Part shown: positions 479 to 7,224 of the stretch, one piece after another
Numbering within the stretch: the stretch's first letter is position 1
Layout: the number at the start of each line of letters is the position of its first letter
Origin: a virus
Taxonomy: Duplodnaviria > Heunggongvirae > Uroviricota > Caudoviricetes
IMG/VR virus record: IMGVR_UViG_3300000059_000071
Location: 1-7,224 of that record
Strand: one strand, 5' to 3'
DNA length: 7,224 nucleotides
Position numbers and translations under genes: made by a program
The notes under the pieces: generated by a model
The model's input: the letters and a program-made list of their open reading frames with translations, nothing else
What the model was told of the DNA's origin: nothing
Databases searched by the model: none

Positions 479-1171
479 TTAATTGTGTCGCTTAAGGGTT
501 TGTGACTGGCTGATTAAGACCTTTCCAAAGACCATAAACCGGTGTTCATTTTCGCTGGTAATTCCCCATTCACGGTAAATCTGGTTATCAGAAATCACCA
601 GTAGTTTGTCAGGTATCATTTGCAGTCGTTTGACATAAATTTTATCATCAAAACCAAATACATAGATACCATCTCCATCAAACTGATTGATACTGACATC
701 AACGAAGATGAGATCTCCTGGCTCAATGGTTGGACACATACTGTCCCCACGAACGTTGATAACTTTAATGTGATTGGCTGGTCGTCCGCCAAACATCGAT
801 ACAGCATTATCAGTTCTGTATTCAATGGCATGAATCACATCAATGACATCACCGCCCTGGATAAGGCCATTTCCCGCACTGGCACTGACATCCAGCATTT
901 CAATACGGAATACATCCTTCACCTGCGCAACATCCTCACTAATACTGTTTTTACATACAGTATTACTTTTGAAGTCTGAGGTAAAGAGATCAGCAATATC
1001 AACACCTAAGCTCCTGGCAATATTACTCAGGGCTTGTTCAGTGAATTGTTTCTGCTTACCTGTTTCCAGGCGTGAGATATTCGCCGCATCCACTCCTATT
1101 GCTTCAGCGAGATCGGCGATTTTCATGTTCTTCGCCTGGCGAAGTTGTCTGACTCGATTTCCTATGTTCAT
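479..1171 (-). CDS. CI-type prophage repressor (N-terminal XRE-family HTH, C-terminal LexA-like S24 peptidase domain); predicted RecA-stimulated autocleavage
   Basis: 230-aa ORF. N-terminal HTH (KIADLAEAIGVDAANISRLETG). Ala-Gly candidate cleavage site at residues 99-100 (SASAGNG). Ser in GDSM (res 144) and Lys in YVKRL (res 181), spaced 37 residues as in LexA Ser119/Lys156. Divergent from the cro-like gene. No SD upstream of the ATG, consistent with a leaderless transcript. Confidence 0.9.
   Translation of the reverse strand: MNIGNRVRQLRQAKNMKIADLAEAIGVDAANISRLETGKQKQFTEQALSNIARSLGVDIADLFTSDFKSNTVCKNSISEDVAQVKDVFRIEMLDVSASAGNGLIQGGDVIDVIHAIEYRTDNAVSMFGGRPANHIKVINVRGDSMCPTIEPGDLIFVDVSINQFDGDGIYVFGFDDKIYVKRLQMIPDKLLVISDNQIYREWGITSENEHRFMVFGKVLISQSQTLKRHN
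943..962. promoter_or_regulatory. LexA-box (SOS box)-like palindrome TACTGTTTTTACATACAGTA inside the repressor coding sequence
   Basis: Matches CTGT-N8-ACAG with both TACTGT/ACAGTA arms perfect; only the AT-rich centre differs from the consensus TACTGTATATATATACAGTA. A scan of the other CTGT occurrences found no second match in the window. Confidence 0.55.
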
Positions 1172-1268: not shown

Positions 1269-1529
1269 ATGCAATCACCATTACGGAATGTGCGTAAAGC
1301 GCACGGATTTACTTTGCAGCATGTTGCTGCTGGCGTTCAGGTCAATCCAGCGACGCTGAGTCGTATTGAAAGACTGGAACAAATTCCATCTATCGATCTT
1401 GCAGAACGCCTGGCCAATTTTTTTAAGGGTGAAATCAGCGAAATGCAGATTCTTTATCCGGCACGTTTTCAATCTAGCCAAAACCAGAATGGGTTTAAAC
1501 CACAGGAACAGGAGGTAAGCCGTGGGTAA
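1269..1529 (+). CDS. Cro-like small HTH regulator (XRE family)
   Basis: 86-aa ORF divergent from the repressor. SD GGAGG 4 nt upstream of ATG. HTH segment FTLQHVAAGVQVNPATLSRIERLE. Position and size fit a Cro/YdaS-type protein. Confidence 0.8.
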   Translation: MQSPLRNVRKAHGFTLQHVAAGVQVNPATLSRIERLEQIPSIDLAERLANFFKGEISEMQILYPARFQSSQNQNGFKPQEQEVSRG

Positions 1530-1566: not shown

Positions 1567-2079
1567 GTGAAAGCTGTCAGAAAAACTATCGCGGCATTGC
1601 CTGGGGGTTACGCTGAAGCTGCTGACTGGCTGGATGTAACAGAGAACGCTTTATTCAACCGCCTTCGTGCAGATGGCGATCAGATTTTCCCGCTGGGATG
1701 GGCAATGATTTTACAACGTGCTGGTGGAACTCACTTCATTGCTGACGCTGTGGCGCAGTCTGCAAATGGCGTCTTTGTGTCTCTTCCTGACGTCGAGGAT
1801 GTGGACAACGCCGATATTAACCAGCGTCTGCTGGAAGTCATTGAACAGATCGGCAGTTATTCAAAACAGATTCGTTCAGCAATCGAAGACGGTGTAGTGG
1901 AACCGCATGAGAAGACAGCAATTAACGACGAGCTGTATCTCTCAATTTCGAAGCTGCAGGAGCATGCAGCACTTGTCTACAAAATTTTTTGCATTTCAGA
2001 AAGTAATGACGCCCGCGAGTGTGCAGCTCCGGGCGTCGTGGCGTCGATTGCTTCTGGTTGTGGAGAAACTAACGCATGA
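1567..2079 (+). CDS. CII-like / YdaT-like early regulator (functional CII analogue family); start codon uncertain
   Basis: 170-aa ORF immediately after the cro-like gene. Assignment is from position and recalled family resemblance, not a search. Annotated start is GTG 1567 with weak SD; a strong SD plus GTG lies in frame at 1511-1524 but is separated by TAG at 1564-1566. Stop overlaps the next ATG (ATGA at 2076-2079). Confidence 0.55.
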
Positions 2080-2414
2080 ACAGTTTAACAACACACTACC
2101 GTCGCTCGCAACTGATTGCGCTTCCTGTACCGGGTGGAAAAGCGAAGGTGGAGTATTGCTATGCAGTAAATGTACCAGGTGACAGGGAAATTGTAACCCA
2201 CAGCTTTGCAGAGTGGGCTGTGGGTGATTTCAACCGGCAGAAGGAGACAGTCCTTTGCGACAAGTTAACCGCTGGTTCAAAGATCACTACGGAGTGCCCG
2301 TCAGAGTCATTCGTTGGGAGCCGGAAACACAACGTGTTATCTACCTCCGCGAAGGCTATGAGCATGAGTGCTTCAGCCCGCTCGAACAGTTTCGTCGTAA
2401 ATTCAGGGAAATAG
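2076..2414 (+). CDS. Hypothetical early protein; likely carries a frameshift (sequence error or pseudogene) in its 3' half
   Basis: 112-aa ORF with SD GGAGAA 8 nt upstream, translationally coupled to the CII-like gene. The C-terminal ~50 residues in this frame are low-complexity ([16 protein letters not shown]), whereas the -1 frame from about 2228 to the TAA at 2432-2434 encodes a protein-like sequence ([55 protein letters not shown]). Confidence 0.4.
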
Positions 2415-2423
2415 AGGTCGGTC

Positions 2424-3365
2424 ATGAGCACTAAATTAACCGGCTATGTATGGGATGGTTGCGCTGCATCAGGCATGAAATTATCCAGCGTGGCAATTAT
2501 GGCCCGCCTGGCTGATTTCAGTAATGACGAAGGTGTGTGCTGGCCATCAATTGAAACCATTGCCCGCCAGATTGGCGCGGGAATGAGTACCGTCAGAACG
2601 GCTATCGCACGGCTGGAAGCAGAAGGCTGGTTAACGCGTAAGGCGCGTCGCCAGGGTAACCGCAATGCGTCGAATGTTTATCAGCTTAACGTTGCGAAGC
2701 TTCAGGCAGCGGCATTTTCTCAACTGTCAGATTCTGACCCGTCAAAATCTGACGCATCAAAATCTGACCCGTCAAAATTTGATGCGTCGAAATCTGGCAA
2801 AAAAGCGGGTTTTCACCCGTCAGAATCTGGCGGGGATCCGTCAGTAAAATCAAAACATGATCCGTCAGATAAAAAAACTTCTCGTCCGGACGCTTCGCAA
2901 CCGGACACGCAGACGGCTGAACAGGAGTTTTTAACTCGCCATCCTGATGCGGTTGTATTCAGCCCTAAAAAGCGCCAGTGGGGAACGCAGGATGATTTGA
3001 CCTGCGCACAGTGGCTCTGGAAAAAAATCATCGCCCTGTACGAGCAGGCCGCCGAATGTGACGGCGAGGTGGTTCGTCCCAAAGAACCGAACTGGACAGC
3101 CTGGGCAAACGAAATTCGCCTGATGTGTGTGCAGGATGGTCGTACTCANAAACAAATCTGCGAGATGTACAGCCGCGTCAGNCGCGATCCGTTCTGGTGC
3201 CGTAACGTGCTCAGCCCGTCGAAGCTGCGGGAAAAATGGGATGAGCTTTCCCTGCGCTTATCGCCGTCCGTAAGCACGTACACCGAAAAACGCGAAGACC
3301 CGTACTTCAAATCCAGTTACGACAACGTGGACTACAGCCAGATCCCGGCAGGATTCAGGGGGTGA
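2424..3365 (+). CDS. Lambda O-like replication initiator (N-terminal winged-helix DNA-binding domain, repeat linker encoded by the iterons, C-terminal domain)
   Basis: 313-aa ORF in the O position after the CII-like gene. N-terminal HTH/winged-helix-like segment (SIETIARQIGAGMSTVRTAIARLEAEGWL). Internal 5-aa repeats (DPSKS/DASKS) coincide with DNA iterons as in lambda O. SD AGAGGT upstream. Contains two N bases (3149, 3182). Confidence 0.8.
   Translation: MSTKLTGYVWDGCAASGMKLSSVAIMARLADFSNDEGVCWPSIETIARQIGAGMSTVRTAIARLEAEGWLTRKARRQGNRNASNVYQLNVAKLQAAAFSQLSDSDPSKSDASKSDPSKFDASKSGKKAGFHPSESGGDPSVKSKHDPSDKKTSRPDASQPDTQTAEQEFLTRHPDAVVFSPKKRQWGTQDDLTCAQWLWKKIIALYEQAAECDGEVVRPKEPNWTAWANEIRLMCVQDGRTXKQICEMYSRVXRDPFWCRNVLSPSKLREKWDELSLRLSPSVSTYTEKREDPYFKSSYDNVDYSQIPAGFRG
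2724..2877. repeat. Iteron array plus A-rich tract: candidate phage replication origin embedded in the initiator gene
   Basis: Five tandem 15-bp units each containing a GTCA-N5-TGAC-type palindrome (GTCAGATTCTGAC 2726-2738, GTCAAAATCTGAC 2741-2753, ATCAAAATCTGAC 2756-2768, GTCAAAATTTGAT 2771-2783, GTCGAAATCTGGC 2786-2798). A sixth copy at 2819-2831, two degenerate CCGTCAG copies (2838-2845, 2861-2868) each preceded by GATC, then an A-rich run (2868-2877). Confidence 0.65.
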
Positions 3366-3367
3366 TC

Positions 3368-3856
3368 ATGAGTCTGTTAAATGACGTTCAGAAATTCATT
3401 GAAGCCCATCCGGGGTGTACTTCCGGAGACATTGCGGATGCTTTTGCAGGTTACTCACGGCAGCGCGTTCTGCAGTCAGCAAGCAAGTTACGTCAGAGTG
3501 GGCGTGTGGCTCACCGTTGTGAAGGAGATACACGCAGACATTTCCCGCGCCTGACTGAGAGAGCGCAGGAACCGGAACCACAACCAGTTCGTGAAACCAG
3601 ACCTGTGCGCAATTTCTATGTCGGCACTAACGATCCCCGTGTGATTTTGTGCCTGACCCGCCAGGCGGAAGAACTGGAGTCCAGAGGCTTATACCGTCGT
3701 GCTGCAACCGTGTGGATGGCGGCATTCCGTGAAAGCCACTCCCAGCCAGAACGAAACAATTTTCTGGCGCGTCGTGAGCGGTGCTTACGGAAAAGCAGCA
3801 AGCGCGCTGCATCGGGTGAAGAGTGGTATCTGTCAGGGAATTACGTGGGGGCTTAA
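3368..3856 (+). CDS. PerC/Pch-family-like transcriptional regulator with an N-terminal extension
   Basis: ORF with SD GGGGG upstream of ATG 3368 (the GTG at 3362 overlaps the O-like stop and is less likely). C-terminal segment AEELESRGLYRRAATVWMAAF...ERNNFLARRERC resembles the conserved core of PerC-like regulators as recalled. Stop overlaps the next start (TAATG at 3854-3858). Confidence 0.55.
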   Translation: MSLLNDVQKFIEAHPGCTSGDIADAFAGYSRQRVLQSASKLRQSGRVAHRCEGDTRRHFPRLTERAQEPEPQPVRETRPVRNFYVGTNDPRVILCLTRQAEELESRGLYRRAATVWMAAFRESHSQPERNNFLARRERCLRKSSKRAASGEEWYLSGNYVGA

Positions 3857-4509
3857 TGAGTAATAAATATTGCCAGGCGCTGGTGGAACTGCGGAACAAA
3901 CCAGCCCATGAACTGAAGGAAGTGGGCGATCAGTGGCGCACGCCGGACAACATTTTCTGGGGAATTAACACCCTGTTTGGCCCGTTTGTTCTGGATCTGT
4001 TCACTGACGGTGATAACGCCAAATGTGCCGCGTATTACACGGCGGAAGACAACGCGCTGGCGCATGACTGGTCAGAACGCCTTGCGGAGCTTAAAGGTGC
4101 TGCCTTTGGTAATCCCCCATACAGCCGTGCCAGTCAGCATGAGGGGCAATACATCACCGGCATGCGTTACATCATGAAGCATGCCAGTGCCATGCGTGAT
4201 AAGGGCGGGCGCTATGTTTTCCTGATCAAAGCTGCCACCAGCGAAGTGTGGTGGCCGGAAGATGCAGATCATATTGCTTTTATTCGCGGGCGTATTGGTT
4301 TTGAACTGCCTGCCTGGTTTATCCCGAAGGATGAGAAGCAGGTGCCGACAGGCGCTTTCTTCGCTGGTGCTATTGCTGTTTTCGACAAGACCTGGAAGGG
4401 ACCGGCAATCAGCTACATCGGGCGCGATGAACTTGAGGCATGTGGTGAGGCGTTTCTGGCGCAGGTTCGCCAGCAGGCGGAAAAACTGGTCAGGGAGATG
4501 GCGGCATGA
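3856..4509 (+). CDS. Phage Dam-family N6-adenine DNA methyltransferase (orphan, no cognate restriction gene nearby)
   Basis: 217-aa ORF from ATG 3856 (SD GGGGG 4 nt upstream). Catalytic motif IV FGNPPYS. Size and context typical of lambdoid nin-region adenine methylases. Coupled to neighbours at both ends. Confidence 0.8.
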   Translation: MSNKYCQALVELRNKPAHELKEVGDQWRTPDNIFWGINTLFGPFVLDLFTDGDNAKCAAYYTAEDNALAHDWSERLAELKGAAFGNPPYSRASQHEGQYITGMRYIMKHASAMRDKGGRYVFLIKAATSEVWWPEDADHIAFIRGRIGFELPAWFIPKDEKQVPTGAFFAGAIAVFDKTWKGPAISYIGRDELEACGEAFLAQVRQQAEKLVREMAA

Positions 4510-4832
4510 CGACGTTAACTCAATGCCAGCAGCAGGTGCTGGATATGCTGATTTCTTATCAGAAAGAACGTGGCTTCCCGCCAACCAATCAGGAGGTGGC
4601 AACCATGCTGGGATACCGTTCAGTGAATGCAGCGGTGGAGCATCTTCGCGCACTGGAGAAAAAAGGCGTCATCACGATAAAGCGTGGCGTGGCCCGGGGG
4701 ATAACGCTTCATACCGCGGTGAAGGACGACGACAGCGAGGCGGTCGGGATTATCCGCGCACTGCTTACCGGTGAGGAAAACGCAAGGCTGCGTGCAACCC
4801 ACTGGTTACATGAGAGGGGCCTGAAAGTATGA
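4506..4832 (+). CDS. LexA N-terminal DNA-binding-domain homologue lacking the cleavage site and S24 peptidase domain
   Basis: 108-aa ORF. Residues 1-70 align with E. coli LexA residues 1-70 at roughly 50% identity as recalled (ours QQQVLDML...GFPPTNQEVATMLGYRSVNAAVEHLRALEKKGVITI vs LexA RQQEVFDLI...[36 protein letters not shown]). Recognition helix NAAxEHL conserved. No Ala-Gly site or Ser/Lys dyad; a ~35-aa unrelated tail follows. ATGA overlaps at both ends. Confidence 0.8.
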   Translation: MTTLTQCQQQVLDMLISYQKERGFPPTNQEVATMLGYRSVNAAVEHLRALEKKGVITIKRGVARGITLHTAVKDDDSEAVGIIRALLTGEENARLRATHWLHERGLKV

Positions 4833-5218
4833 AGCTGATCCTGCCTTTTCCGCCCAGCGTGAACACGTACTGGCGACACCCCAACAAAGGGGCGTTTGCT
4901 GGTAAGAGCCTGATAAGCGCGGCGGGGCGAAAATTCCAGAGCGCGGCGTGCGCAGCAATAGTTGAGCAGTTACGTCGTCTGCCGAAACCAACGTCGGCAC
5001 CTGCTTCAGTGGAGATCGTGTTGTTTCCTCCGGATAACCGGATCCGCGATCTGGACAACTATAACAAGGCGCTGTTTGACGCCCTGACCCACGCGGGTGT
5101 GTGGGAAGACGACAGCCAGGTGAAAAGAATGCTGGTGGAGTGGGGACCGGTTATCCCGGAAGGGAAGGTCGAGATCACTATCAGTAAGTACGAGAAAACG
5201 GCGGGTGCAGCCGCCTGA
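4829..5218 (+). CDS. rusA: RusA Holliday-junction resolvase
   Basis: 129-aa ORF. Motifs LPFPPSVNTYWRH and RDLDNYNKALFDALTHAGVWEDDSQV match E. coli RusA (LPWPPSNNRYYRH ... [26 protein letters not shown]), including the catalytic Asp cluster. SD GAGAGGGG upstream. Confidence 0.9.
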   Translation: MKLILPFPPSVNTYWRHPNKGAFAGKSLISAAGRKFQSAACAAIVEQLRRLPKPTSAPASVEIVLFPPDNRIRDLDNYNKALFDALTHAGVWEDDSQVKRMLVEWGPVIPEGKVEITISKYEKTAGAAA

Positions 5219-5237
5219 GCAAGAGGAGAAACGAAGT

Positions 5238-6035
5238 ATGAATAATCTGATGGTCATTGATGGTATTGAAGTTCGTCGTGATGCTTATGGGCGTTACAGC
5301 CTGAACGATCTGCACAGGGCTGCCGGTTCTCTGGATAAGCATAAGCCTGCATTCTGGCTCCGCAATGAGCAAACTGAACGTTTAATAAGCGAGTTGCAGA
5401 TTTGCAACTCGGTCAATATAGAGCCAGTTAACGTTATTCGTGGCGGAAATAACCAGGGGACGTATGTCTGCAAAGAACTGGTGTATGCCTATGCAATGTG
5501 GATCAGTCCGTCATTCCATCTGAAGGTGATCCGTACTTTCGATATGGTAACCAGCGCACCGGAAAAATTATCCGGGCAGGCTGCTGACAAGATGCAGGCT
5601 GGAGTGATTCTGCTGGACTTTATGCGCCGGGAGTTAAACCTGTCTAACTCTTCAGTGCTTGGTGCCTGTCAGAAACTCCAGGAGGCTGTTGGCTTACCGA
5701 ATCTGGCACCGCGCTATGCCATTGATGCTCCTGCTGACGCGCCTGATGGCTCAAGCCGCCCCACGCTGTCACTGAGTGCACTGCTGAAGCAGTATGGTAT
5801 CCGCCTGACAGCTAATCAGGCATATCACCAGATGGTGAAGCTGGGGATCGTCGAGCAGCGCGAACGATACAGCCGTACCGCGATTAACAACATCAAAAAA
5901 TTCTGGTCGCTGACAGCGAAAGGCTGCATGTTCGGCAAGAACATCACCAGTCCCGCAAATCCGCGCGAGACGCAGCCGCATTTCTTCGAATCCCGATTCC
6001 CTGAGCTGTTAAAGCTGCTCGATACCGTTCATTGA
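5238..6035 (+). CDS. KilA-N domain protein (Roi/antirepressor-like) with an uncharacterised C-terminal domain
   Basis: 265-aa ORF from ATG 5238 with SD GAGGAG 8 nt upstream. N-terminal ~100 aa (MVIDGIEVRRDAYGRYSLNDLHRAAG...KPAFWLRNEQTERLISEL) has the character of KilA-N/Roi DNA-binding domains. The C-terminal ~160 aa was not recognised. Confidence 0.75.
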   Translation: MNNLMVIDGIEVRRDAYGRYSLNDLHRAAGSLDKHKPAFWLRNEQTERLISELQICNSVNIEPVNVIRGGNNQGTYVCKELVYAYAMWISPSFHLKVIRTFDMVTSAPEKLSGQAADKMQAGVILLDFMRRELNLSNSSVLGACQKLQEAVGLPNLAPRYAIDAPADAPDGSSRPTLSLSALLKQYGIRLTANQAYHQMVKLGIVEQRERYSRTAINNIKKFWSLTAKGCMFGKNITSPANPRETQPHFFESRFPELLKLLDTVH

Positions 6036-6036
6036 G

Positions 6037-7032
6037 GTGACCGTGAGAGCACTACTGACCCCTGAAATTGCCCCGCGTATGGGGATCGTATTGTTCAGAC
6101 CAGGTTCAGAGCTGATGCCCCTGTTTATGCAGGGGCGTGTCCTGCTGGAGCCTGAGCCGGAACGTTATTCATCTTTCGCCAGCGGTGCCGTTCCGGCGGC
6201 ATCACAACCGCTGGCGGATGATCCTGCCGTTCGGGCCGTGTTCCGCAATGAGGCAGTGATCCGTCGTGCTGGTGGCGTGGAATGTCTTGAAAGCTGGTTA
6301 CTTCGTGAAAAAGGCTGCCAGTGGCCTCATTCCGACTGGCACAGCGAGAACATGACCACAATGCGACACGCTCCGGGCGCAATCCGTCTGTGCTGGCACT
6401 GCGATAACCAGCTGCGCGATCAGTTCACGGAACGGCTGGAATCAATGGCAACGGATAACTGTGCCCGCTGGGTGTTGTCTGTTGTGCGTCGGGATCTCGG
6501 TTTTGATGACAGTCACGTTGTGACAATGCCGGAACTGTGCTGGTGGCTGGTTCGTAATGACCTGGCGGATGCCTTACCGGAAAGTGCAGCCCGTAAGGCA
6601 CTGAGATTACCGAAGCCTGTTGTGCCGTCTGTCACCCGGGAAAGTGACCTTGTGCCTTCGGTTCCTGCCACCAGCATCATCCAGGATAAAGCGAAAAAGG
6701 TGCTGGCGCTGAAAGTGGATCCGGAGTCGCCGGAGTCTTTTATGTTACGCCCAAAACGTCGCCGCTGGGTTAATGAAAAGTACACGCGCTGGGTTAAGAC
6801 GCAGCCGTGTGCATGTTGTGGAAAGCCTGCTGATGATCCCCACCANCTGATAGGCCACGGTCAGGGNGGAATGGGTACAAAAGCGCATGANCTCTTTGTG
6901 TTGCCTTTGTGCAGAAAGCATCACGACGAGCTGCATGCGGATACCNTGGCATTTGAAGAGAAGTATGGCTCCCAGCTGGAGNTGATATTTCGTTTTATCG
7001 ATCGTGCGCTGGCAATNGGCGTGCTGGCCTGA
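6037..7032 (+). CDS. DUF968-like prophage protein with C-terminal Cys/His (HNH-like) motif; start codon uncertain (GTG 6037, GTG 6043 or ATG 6079)
   Basis: 331-aa ORF directly upstream of Q, the position of DUF968 proteins in lambdoid prophages as recalled. Cys/His motifs CWHCDNQ and CACCGKP...CRKHHDELH. Six N bases inside the ORF (6846, 6868, 6891, 6946, 6972, 7018). Confidence 0.65.
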
Positions 7033-7048
7033 TTTTGTGGAGAAAGTT

Positions 7049-7224
7049 GATGCGTGATATTCAAATGGTTCTTGAACGTTGGGGGGCATGGGTGGCAAAT
7101 AATCACGAGGATGTGGAATGGTCATCTGTTGCTGCAGGTTTTAAGGGATTAATTCCTTCGAAAGTAAAATCCCGCCCGCAATGTAGCGATGACGATGGCC
7201 TGATCATTAGCTCTGCGATGACAG
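7049..7224 (+). CDS. Late antiterminator Q, N-terminal fragment (gene runs off the window end)
   Basis: ATG 7049 with SD GGAG 6 nt upstream. Translation [53 protein letters not shown] matches the recalled N-terminus of Q-family antiterminators. Follows the nin-like genes as expected. Confidence 0.75.

Follow-up and report, generated by a model that had tools for sequence, protein, structure and literature searches.

A putative replication origin within the linker-coding part of the initiator gene of an SfIV/SfII-type lambdoid prophage

We have analysed a stretch of 7,224 nucleotides (the window) of the IMG/VR virus record IMGVR_UViG_3300000059_000071 which, judged by its sequence, comes from an SfIV/SfII-type lambdoid prophage and covers its early-right region. 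Positions 2715-2906, about 190 bp lying in the linker-coding part of the prophage's own initiator gene, are most probably the replication origin of this prophage type. Such an arrangement is well known: in lambdoid phages, iterons and an AT-rich tract situated centrally in gene O make up the origin (PMC7466680, PMC3349717), and ori-lambda consists of four iterons and a 38-bp AT-rich tract within O (PMC3349717). The origin of the present initiator family is previously undescribed. An earlier note on this DNA had seen in it an origin-like layout of iterons and AT-rich DNA as in ori-lambda, and the constraint, the order of the elements and the alignment of the right arm described below all argue for that view.

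Constraint was measured at the DNA level across homologous genes. A scan of one genome per species gave 80 related loci in Enterobacterales, and 74 non-identical genes sharing the N-terminal domain (N-domain) of the initiator, from many Enterobacterales genera, were aligned by codons. Synonymous entropy (H/Hmax) is 0.80 over aa 1-97, 0.28 over aa 98-161 and 0.69 over aa 165-200 (Mann-Whitney p = 6.5e-20). The conserved residues of aa 1-97 each use most of the possible codons, and in 38 of the 64 columns of aa 98-161 a single codon accounts for at least 90% of the sequences. Conservation at codon positions 1, 2 and 3 is 0.85, 0.91 and 0.54 in the N-domain, a pattern usual for coding DNA, versus an almost level 0.81, 0.83 and 0.77 in the linker. 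Synonymous sites are frozen through D161, at the end of the right arm (TGT in 53 of 53 sequences, GAC in 64 of 65). Because they are frozen all along aa 98-161, this stretch would be a cis-acting DNA element of about 190 bp, wider than the interval 2724-2877 given in the earlier note, although the repeats do lie there. Freezing of synonymous sites can thus map an intragenic origin to within a few bases.

Could the repeats be explained by the protein alone? In the AlphaFold2 model, aa 102-160 have a pLDDT below 50 and are predicted to be a disordered linker, which agrees with the earlier placing of the array where the initiator has its repeat linker. The N-domain ends at about aa 100 and the C-terminal domain (C-domain) starts at about aa 162, with the array encoding aa 101-136 and the constrained zone aa 98-161. 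A low-complexity linker of SD-x-SK repeats, grown by replication slippage and devoid of any DNA-level function, would account for this disorder, for a unit of five codons and for a copy number that varies by 5 aa. However, synonymous sites are frozen across distant genera, with serine as TCA or TCT at fixed places and lysine as AAA, and the 15-bp period is kept where the peptide differs between classes (DPSKS versus DPSNI/VEGLT versus ERPE-like), so that we regard a purely peptide-level origin of the repeats as very improbable. Even less credible is a constraint imposed by an overlapping gene in another frame or by a structured RNA. Mechanically called open reading frames do cross the array (2665-2847 on the + strand, 2686-2853 on the - strand), but the five other frames are open in 0/73, 0/73, 0/73, 6/73 and 26/73 homologues; none of them is open throughout, which excludes an overlapping gene. 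As for RNA, the strand folds better than shuffled sequences (z = -4.67) because of its alternating dyads, but it has no Rfam match, and an internal promoter-like site was looked for and not found.

The array itself is regular. As the earlier note had described, five tandem 15-bp units with an internal palindrome (2724-2798) are followed after a gap by a sixth at 2817 (Table 1). With up to three mismatches, the consensus CCGTCAAAATCTGAC is matched on the + strand at 2724, 2739, 2754, 2769, 2784 and 2817; both strands together give 8 matches against 0.23 +/- 0.46 expected, a number reached in 0 of 200 shuffles, and no further copy at this threshold exists elsewhere in the 7224 bases, including the surroundings of the promoter region. 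Tandem Repeats Finder reports 2733-2796 with a period of 15, 4.3 copies and 81% matches. Besides the GTCA-N5-TGAC dyads there are TGAC-N2-GTCA dyads, because the 15-bp units abut. In a logo of 367 units from 67 genes, T4 C5 A6 and A8 A9 T10 C11 T12 G13 are conserved and positions 1-3 are variable; variation along the array is therefore periodic, with a fixed dyad core and a free 3-bp spacer whose codon alternates between P, A and T. The earlier note had held that an array missing from homologous initiator genes would speak against an origin; arrays are present in nearly all homologues, usually with 5-6 units (range 3-11), and the copy number shifts by 5-aa steps among close relatives. An initiator variant of Salmonella enterica (locus L086, 8001-8867), found on 128 contigs, retains two iterons fused to the GATC core, the others having been lost by in-register deletion. 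Between its lysis genes and a tail-fibre gene, the 17-kb locus lacks terminase and head genes.

The spacer between the tandem iterons and the last one is partially conserved in homologues, and its F130 is TTT in 64/64. A terminator-like hairpin, CGGGTGAAAACCCG followed by CTTTTTT, can be drawn in it on the - strand (2819-2806); it was rejected as a feature and is probably due to chance, because its stem is not kept in the family consensus. The sixth iteron shows a per-base conservation of 80-99% in homologues and leads into the core of the element, which contains exactly two copies of GATCCGTCAG in the whole window, 24 bp apart. Allowing one mismatch adds a third match, on the - strand at 2749-2758; chance would give 0.38, and a total of 3 was attained in none of 200 shuffles. 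No other 35-bp segment of the gene is as AT-rich as the A-rich tract (74% AT over 35 bp, AT skew +0.43), which is one of six AT-rich regions of this kind in the window (2840-2879 has a GC content of 0.30 and the same skew of +0.43). The earlier note had placed an A-rich tract after the GATC copies. A run of seven A does stand at 2871-2877, but the A-rich zone holds GATC copy 2 and the tail of copy 1, and so overlaps them rather than follows them. GATC is not enriched window-wide (35 sites against 28.2 +/- 4.8 expected). No DnaA box (TTWTNCACA, up to one mismatch) lies within 2715-2906, the nearest being at 3016-3024, and the total of 19 in the window is not an enrichment over the 13.3 expected. 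The window showed no second candidate origin.

Table 1. Features of the proposed origin, domains of the initiator and genes of the window
Feature	Position	Strand	Basis or remark
Whole proposed origin (zone of DNA-level constraint, about 190 bp)	2715-2906		Synonymous codon entropy
Five head-to-tail 15-bp iterons, U1-U5, each with a GTCA-N5-TGAC dyad	2724-2798	+	
Spacer AAAAAAGCGGGTTTTCAC (A6 and T4 tracts) between tandem iterons and last iteron, 18 bp	2799-2816	+	
Sixth iteron, imperfect 17-bp palindrome CCGTCAGA-A-TCTGGCGG, abutting the conserved core	2817-2833	+	
GATC-tagged copy 1, GATCCGTCAG	2835-2844	+	Exact match
GATC-tagged copy 2, GATCCGTCAG	2859-2868	+	Exact match
A-rich strand-asymmetric tract, candidate DNA-unwinding element	2843-2880	+	
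GC-rich right arm CTTCTCGTCCGGAC / CTTCGCAACCGGAC (direct repeat; GTCCGGAC palindrome)	2878-2906	+	
Initiator, 313 aa	2424-3365	+	ORF list; Pfam; PHROG; AlphaFold2 domains
N-terminal winged-helix DNA-binding domain (aa 1-97), presumed iteron reader	2424-2714	+	Pfam, AlphaFold2, Foldseek
C-terminal domain homologous to lambda O and phi80 gp15	2907-3365	+	BLASTP
cI-like repressor	479-1171	-	Gene order
cro-like	1269-1529		
CII (CP76 family)	1567-2079		
Small ORF	2076-2414		
PerC-like	3362-3856		
Dam-family N6-adenine methyltransferase	3823-4509	+	Pfam PF05869, 1.1e-45
LexA-DNA-binding-domain protein	4506-4832		
RusA	4829-5218		
276-aa ORF	5205-6035		Counterpart in related Salmonella locus carries a KilA-N domain
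331-aa ORF	6037-7032		HNH endonuclease in SfIV; DUF968/HNH in related Salmonella locus

The two GATC-tagged copies, at 2835 and 2859, had been taken for degenerate iterons. Both are present, but they are the most conserved part of the element. In copy 1, D138 is GAT in 74/74 homologues, the next codon CCG in 69/74, S140 TCA in 65/65 and V141 GTA in 68/71; in copy 2, D146 is GAT in 67/67, followed by CCA or CCG in 73/73 and by TCA for S148 in 60/60. The sites are thus kept as GAT-CC in 74/74 and 67/74 homologues, and the same aspartate in the tandem units is mostly GAC. A second class of homologues, class B, has an N-domain (MSSKLHGLVWEG...) about 56-63% identical overall (A1) and an array of another 15-bp repeat, built on TTGACCCC/GGGGTCAA and alternating in orientation. 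Right before its core, at the position of the sixth iteron, class B has the palindrome GGGGTCAATGGTTGACCCC; it shares its core, GATCCGTCAGT..AAA..GATCCGTCAG, with the window's class (class A), its GATC sites being 18 bp apart instead of 24 bp. Given a conservation unmatched elsewhere in the element and their presence in a class whose iterons differ, the GATC copies are, on this comparison of sequences, a class-independent component and not decayed iterons.

The initiator gene is 98-99.6% identical to genes of Shigella phages SfIV and SfII (99% in these two) and of several E. coli phages, and its product belongs to PHROG 391, 'replication initiation O-like' (4.7e-134). The earlier designation of the gene as O-like holds for the C-domain, where aa ~165-278 give matches by BLASTP to lambda O (30% identity over 216 aa, E = 6e-24) and to phi80 gp15 (33% identity, E = 1e-23). 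It does not extend to the N-domain, which BLASTP aligned neither to lambda O nor to phi80 gp15 and which matches Pfam HTH_36 (4.2e-11, aa 23-70), together with GntR/MarR-type matches; Phage_rep_O has no Pfam match in the protein. Because its N-domain is HTH_36 and not Phage_rep_O, the initiator is, by sequence homology, O-like in the C-domain only. AlphaFold2 models the N-domain as a helix-turn-helix with a beta wing, for which Foldseek finds weak MarR/ArsR-type winged-helix matches, and the predicted fold is of the winged-helix kind that binds dyads as dimers. No solved structure of a relative was found beyond the weak MarR-type matches. Two other assignments were rejected: 'primosomal protein I', since there is no DnaT-type Pfam match, and a kinship of the N-domain with phi80 gene 15 (database name 'Replication protein 15'), since the C-domain alone is related. 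The last 76 bp of the gene (3290-3365) are 96-97% identical in many phages with otherwise unrelated initiators, namely SfV, mEp460, cdtI and Stx2a/Stx2c phages. They encode a conserved tail, REDPYFK.SYDNVDYSQIPAGFRG, downstream of a low-confidence segment, and this tail may mark a mosaic joint or serve as a short motif for partner binding, or both.

How does the element compare with mapped origins? Like the window, ori-lambda (taken as lambda 39034-39160) lies in the middle of its initiator gene, in the part coding for the inter-domain linker, and its sites are dyads with an A-rich centre (TCCCTC-AAAAC-GAGGGA in lambda, GTCA-AAATC-TGAC in the window). In lambda and phi80, as here, an A-rich tract stands promoter-distal of the iterons, on the same side and the same strand. 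Right of this tract the lambda sequence can be aligned with that of the window (TTCGTCAG against TCTCGTCCG), and the C-domains are homologous; the right arm CTTCTCGTCCGGAC aligns with TTCGTCAGAG of lambda and TTCGTCCGAG of phi80, each lying right of its AT-rich tract. The origin in phi80 gene 15, with four annotated gp15 binding sites, has the same layout as the window, its right arm AAAAGATCTTCGTCCGAG resembles AAAAAACTTCTCGTCCGGAC of the window and AAAAAGATCTTCTTGTCCGGAC of class B, and a GATC stands at the edge of the A-rich tract in both phi80 and class B. There are also differences. Lambda has a Phage_rep_O N-domain where the window has HTH_36, and four sites of 18-19 bp spaced 20-24 bp where the window has six 15-bp units, contiguous in the array; the lambda tract is without GATC, whereas that of the window includes two conserved GATC elements and is weaker and interrupted compared with the 38 bp of lambda; and O is accompanied by a P gene, whereas none follows the present initiator. 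phi80 differs from the window by an unrelated N-domain, unrelated iterons (of the TTCCCGAAAACGGGAA type) and a P-like gene 14.

Dyad repeats in a zone constrained at the DNA level show binding, not initiation, and the array might be a cluster of sites serving autoregulation, a transcriptional roadblock, titration or handcuffing of the initiator, or another phage regulator. In lambda, plasmid-borne iterons also act in trans as inhibitors of replication (PMC3349717). We nevertheless consider such an exclusive role unlikely, given that the mapped origins of lambda and phi80 can be aligned with the A-rich tract and right arm, that the cluster occupies the same place in a gene with an O-like C-domain, and that the window holds neither another copy of the iteron, for instance near a promoter, nor a competing origin.

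A resemblance of another kind exists to E. coli oriC, with its 13-mers GATCTnTTnTTTT, and to P1 oriR, in which GATC-first repeats occupy the AT-rich part beside the initiator sites and in which Dam methylation and SeqA control opening and re-initiation. The proposed origin has only two such GATC sites, the A-rich run after GATC is on the opposite strand sense, and no DnaA box is nearby; the likeness would be one of layout.

The element also marks where initiator genes exchange their parts. About 45 loci share only aa 1 to ~165 with the window (junction at aa ~161-169) and continue with another C-domain; phiNP likewise shares only aa 1 to ~165 (query 2-479). Conversely, mEp460_4F5 is near-identical from window position 2869 (query position 446) onward and has an unrelated N-domain and different iterons. 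The junctions thus fall at the right edge of the constrained element. Because array and N-domain are inherited together and the C-domains are swapped, the N-domain with its iterons would form one module, and the right arm with the C-domain another. In HTH_36 initiators that are less closely related, this place is taken by other dyad repeats, GTGCA-N5-TGCAC in the case of SfV. Like the window, mEp460_4F5 has the right arm and C-domain from 2869, preceded by repeats of its own, GGTCAAARTGAC, and then an A-rich tract, and SfV has an HTH_36 N-domain with dyad repeats in the linker; in both, PerC-like and Dam genes follow the initiator as they do here. Unlike the window, both have other iterons, other N-domains and no GATCCGTCAG pair. 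The initiators of lambda, P22 and L also each have their own iterons inside the coding region (bioRxiv 10.1101/2020.10.05.325894). Kozlowska et al. studied a 'P27' origin, which was considered and set aside, as it is lambda-like and outside this initiator family, although a class B homologue does occur in the phiP27 record.

These exchange points at the right edge (mEp460_4F5 at 2869, the ~45 loci at aa 161-169, phiNP at 2-479) would also suit a patch of homology at a mosaic junction, kept or recently spread because it serves recombination between N- and C-domain modules, and not an origin. Recent spread would leave uniform conservation, whereas the conservation seen is position-specific with a 15-bp period, and variable sites are scattered in the zone, such as G136 (GGC 34, GGG 24, GGT 6). 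Moreover, the left part differs by N-domain class, yet the period and the layout are kept. We therefore hold a mere recombination patch to be quite unlikely. Lambda-type origins also show a clustering of junctions, and the two readings can coexist.

If 2715-2906 is an origin, it may work as follows, each step being argued by analogy with lambda from the anatomy and conservation observed. Dimers of the N-domain would bind the GTCA-N5-TGAC dyads, every 15 bp along 2724-2798 and again at 2817-2833, and the bound array would form a multi-dimer complex like the lambda O-some. This complex would strain the A-rich tract at 2843-2880, with its two GATCCGTCAG elements, until the tract opens, and the O-like C-domain would bring in the host replicative helicase, probably directly or through host DnaC, because no phage P, DnaC or DnaB gene is present. 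The tandem iterons would set replication specificity and travel with the N-domain as a module, and the GATC core and the right arm (2878-2906) would act as a common unwinding and loading platform across specificity classes. The linker may tolerate whatever peptide the origin encodes, because this stretch is disordered.

Helicase loading and methylation deserve separate comment. By the ORF list and Pfam, no P, DnaC or DnaB gene lies after the initiator, the genes downstream being PerC-like, Dam, LexA-DNA-binding-domain-like and RusA. A homologue of lambda P follows the initiator in 8/80 related loci; among the loci with an O-like C-domain it is present in 6/6 of class B versus 1/14 of class A. 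An O-like C-domain without P would need another route to DnaB. As for methylation, the earlier note had found the GATC sites noteworthy given a Dam-family gene about 1 kb downstream. The Dam gene is there, and a homologue lies downstream of the initiator in 39/80 related loci, often directly adjacent, but its possible link to the GATC sites of the origin is correlative only. SfIV is 100% identical over 2799-2910 and 99% identical over the initiator gene, yet has no Dam gene; because the core is identical without it, phage Dam is, by this comparison, not required. Host Dam could methylate the GATC sites. More speculatively, and with doubt prevailing, the GATCCGTCAG pair and the A-rich tract might be a specificity-independent, methylation-sensitive core for opening and loading, with the downstream Dam keeping the origin fully methylated so that it escapes SeqA sequestration during rapid initiation, and with the helicase recruited by way of the O-like C-domain and its conserved C-terminal tail, no phage loader being needed.

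Several points weigh against the origin we propose. Literature searches found no experimental evidence of replication or binding for the element or its close relatives and no published experimental work on this type of origin, the SfIV paper naming a replication module only. The control for the entropy values is the N-domain of the same sequences, and the comparison falls short of a phylogeny-aware rate test. With 74% AT over 35 bp, the A-rich tract is a modest one, and the GC-containing GATCCGTCAG copies break it up. Full occupancy by dimers is not certain, because the 15-bp centre-to-centre spacing is tighter than the 20-24 bp of lambda. Recruitment of the helicase is the weakest step, because no helicase or loader gene follows the initiator. 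Finally, the widespread Salmonella variant keeps two units only, in a prophage that looks degraded; two iterons with an AT-rich tract are the reported minimum for unwinding in lambda (PMC7466680).

Why does this element matter? It offers a concrete candidate origin of about 190 bp and an iteron consensus for a very common group of prophages of Escherichia, Shigella, Salmonella and Klebsiella, whose initiators are now inconsistently annotated as 'O', 'primosomal protein I', 'GntR family' or 'HTH domain protein'. The contrast between class-specific iterons and a shared GATC-tagged core suggests how specificity modules may swap in mosaic phages.

Around the initiator, the window has the gene order listed in Table 1. 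The PerC-like protein of 164 aa combines a winged-helix-like N-terminal half (PHROG 23071, of unknown function) with a PerC/ANR-type C-terminal half, and a homologue follows the initiator in 20/80 related loci; the 3′ end of its gene is overlapped by the Dam gene by 34 bases. The 108-aa protein at 4506-4832 is a LexA DNA-binding domain alone (Pfam 2.9e-19), without the S24 peptidase part, and keeps the same position in SfIV, mEp460_4F5 and SfV. Tandem Repeats Finder also reports two short repeats, one at 822-851 within the cI-like gene (9-bp unit TCAATGACA, 3.3 copies) and one at 5248-5269 near the start of the ORF at 5205-6035 (10-bp unit, 2.3 copies). With regard to sequence quality, ambiguous bases (N) at 3149 and 3182 give X at initiator aa 242 and 253 and leave the origin region unaffected, and N bases at several positions in 6037-7125 give many X residues in the ORF at 6037-7032.

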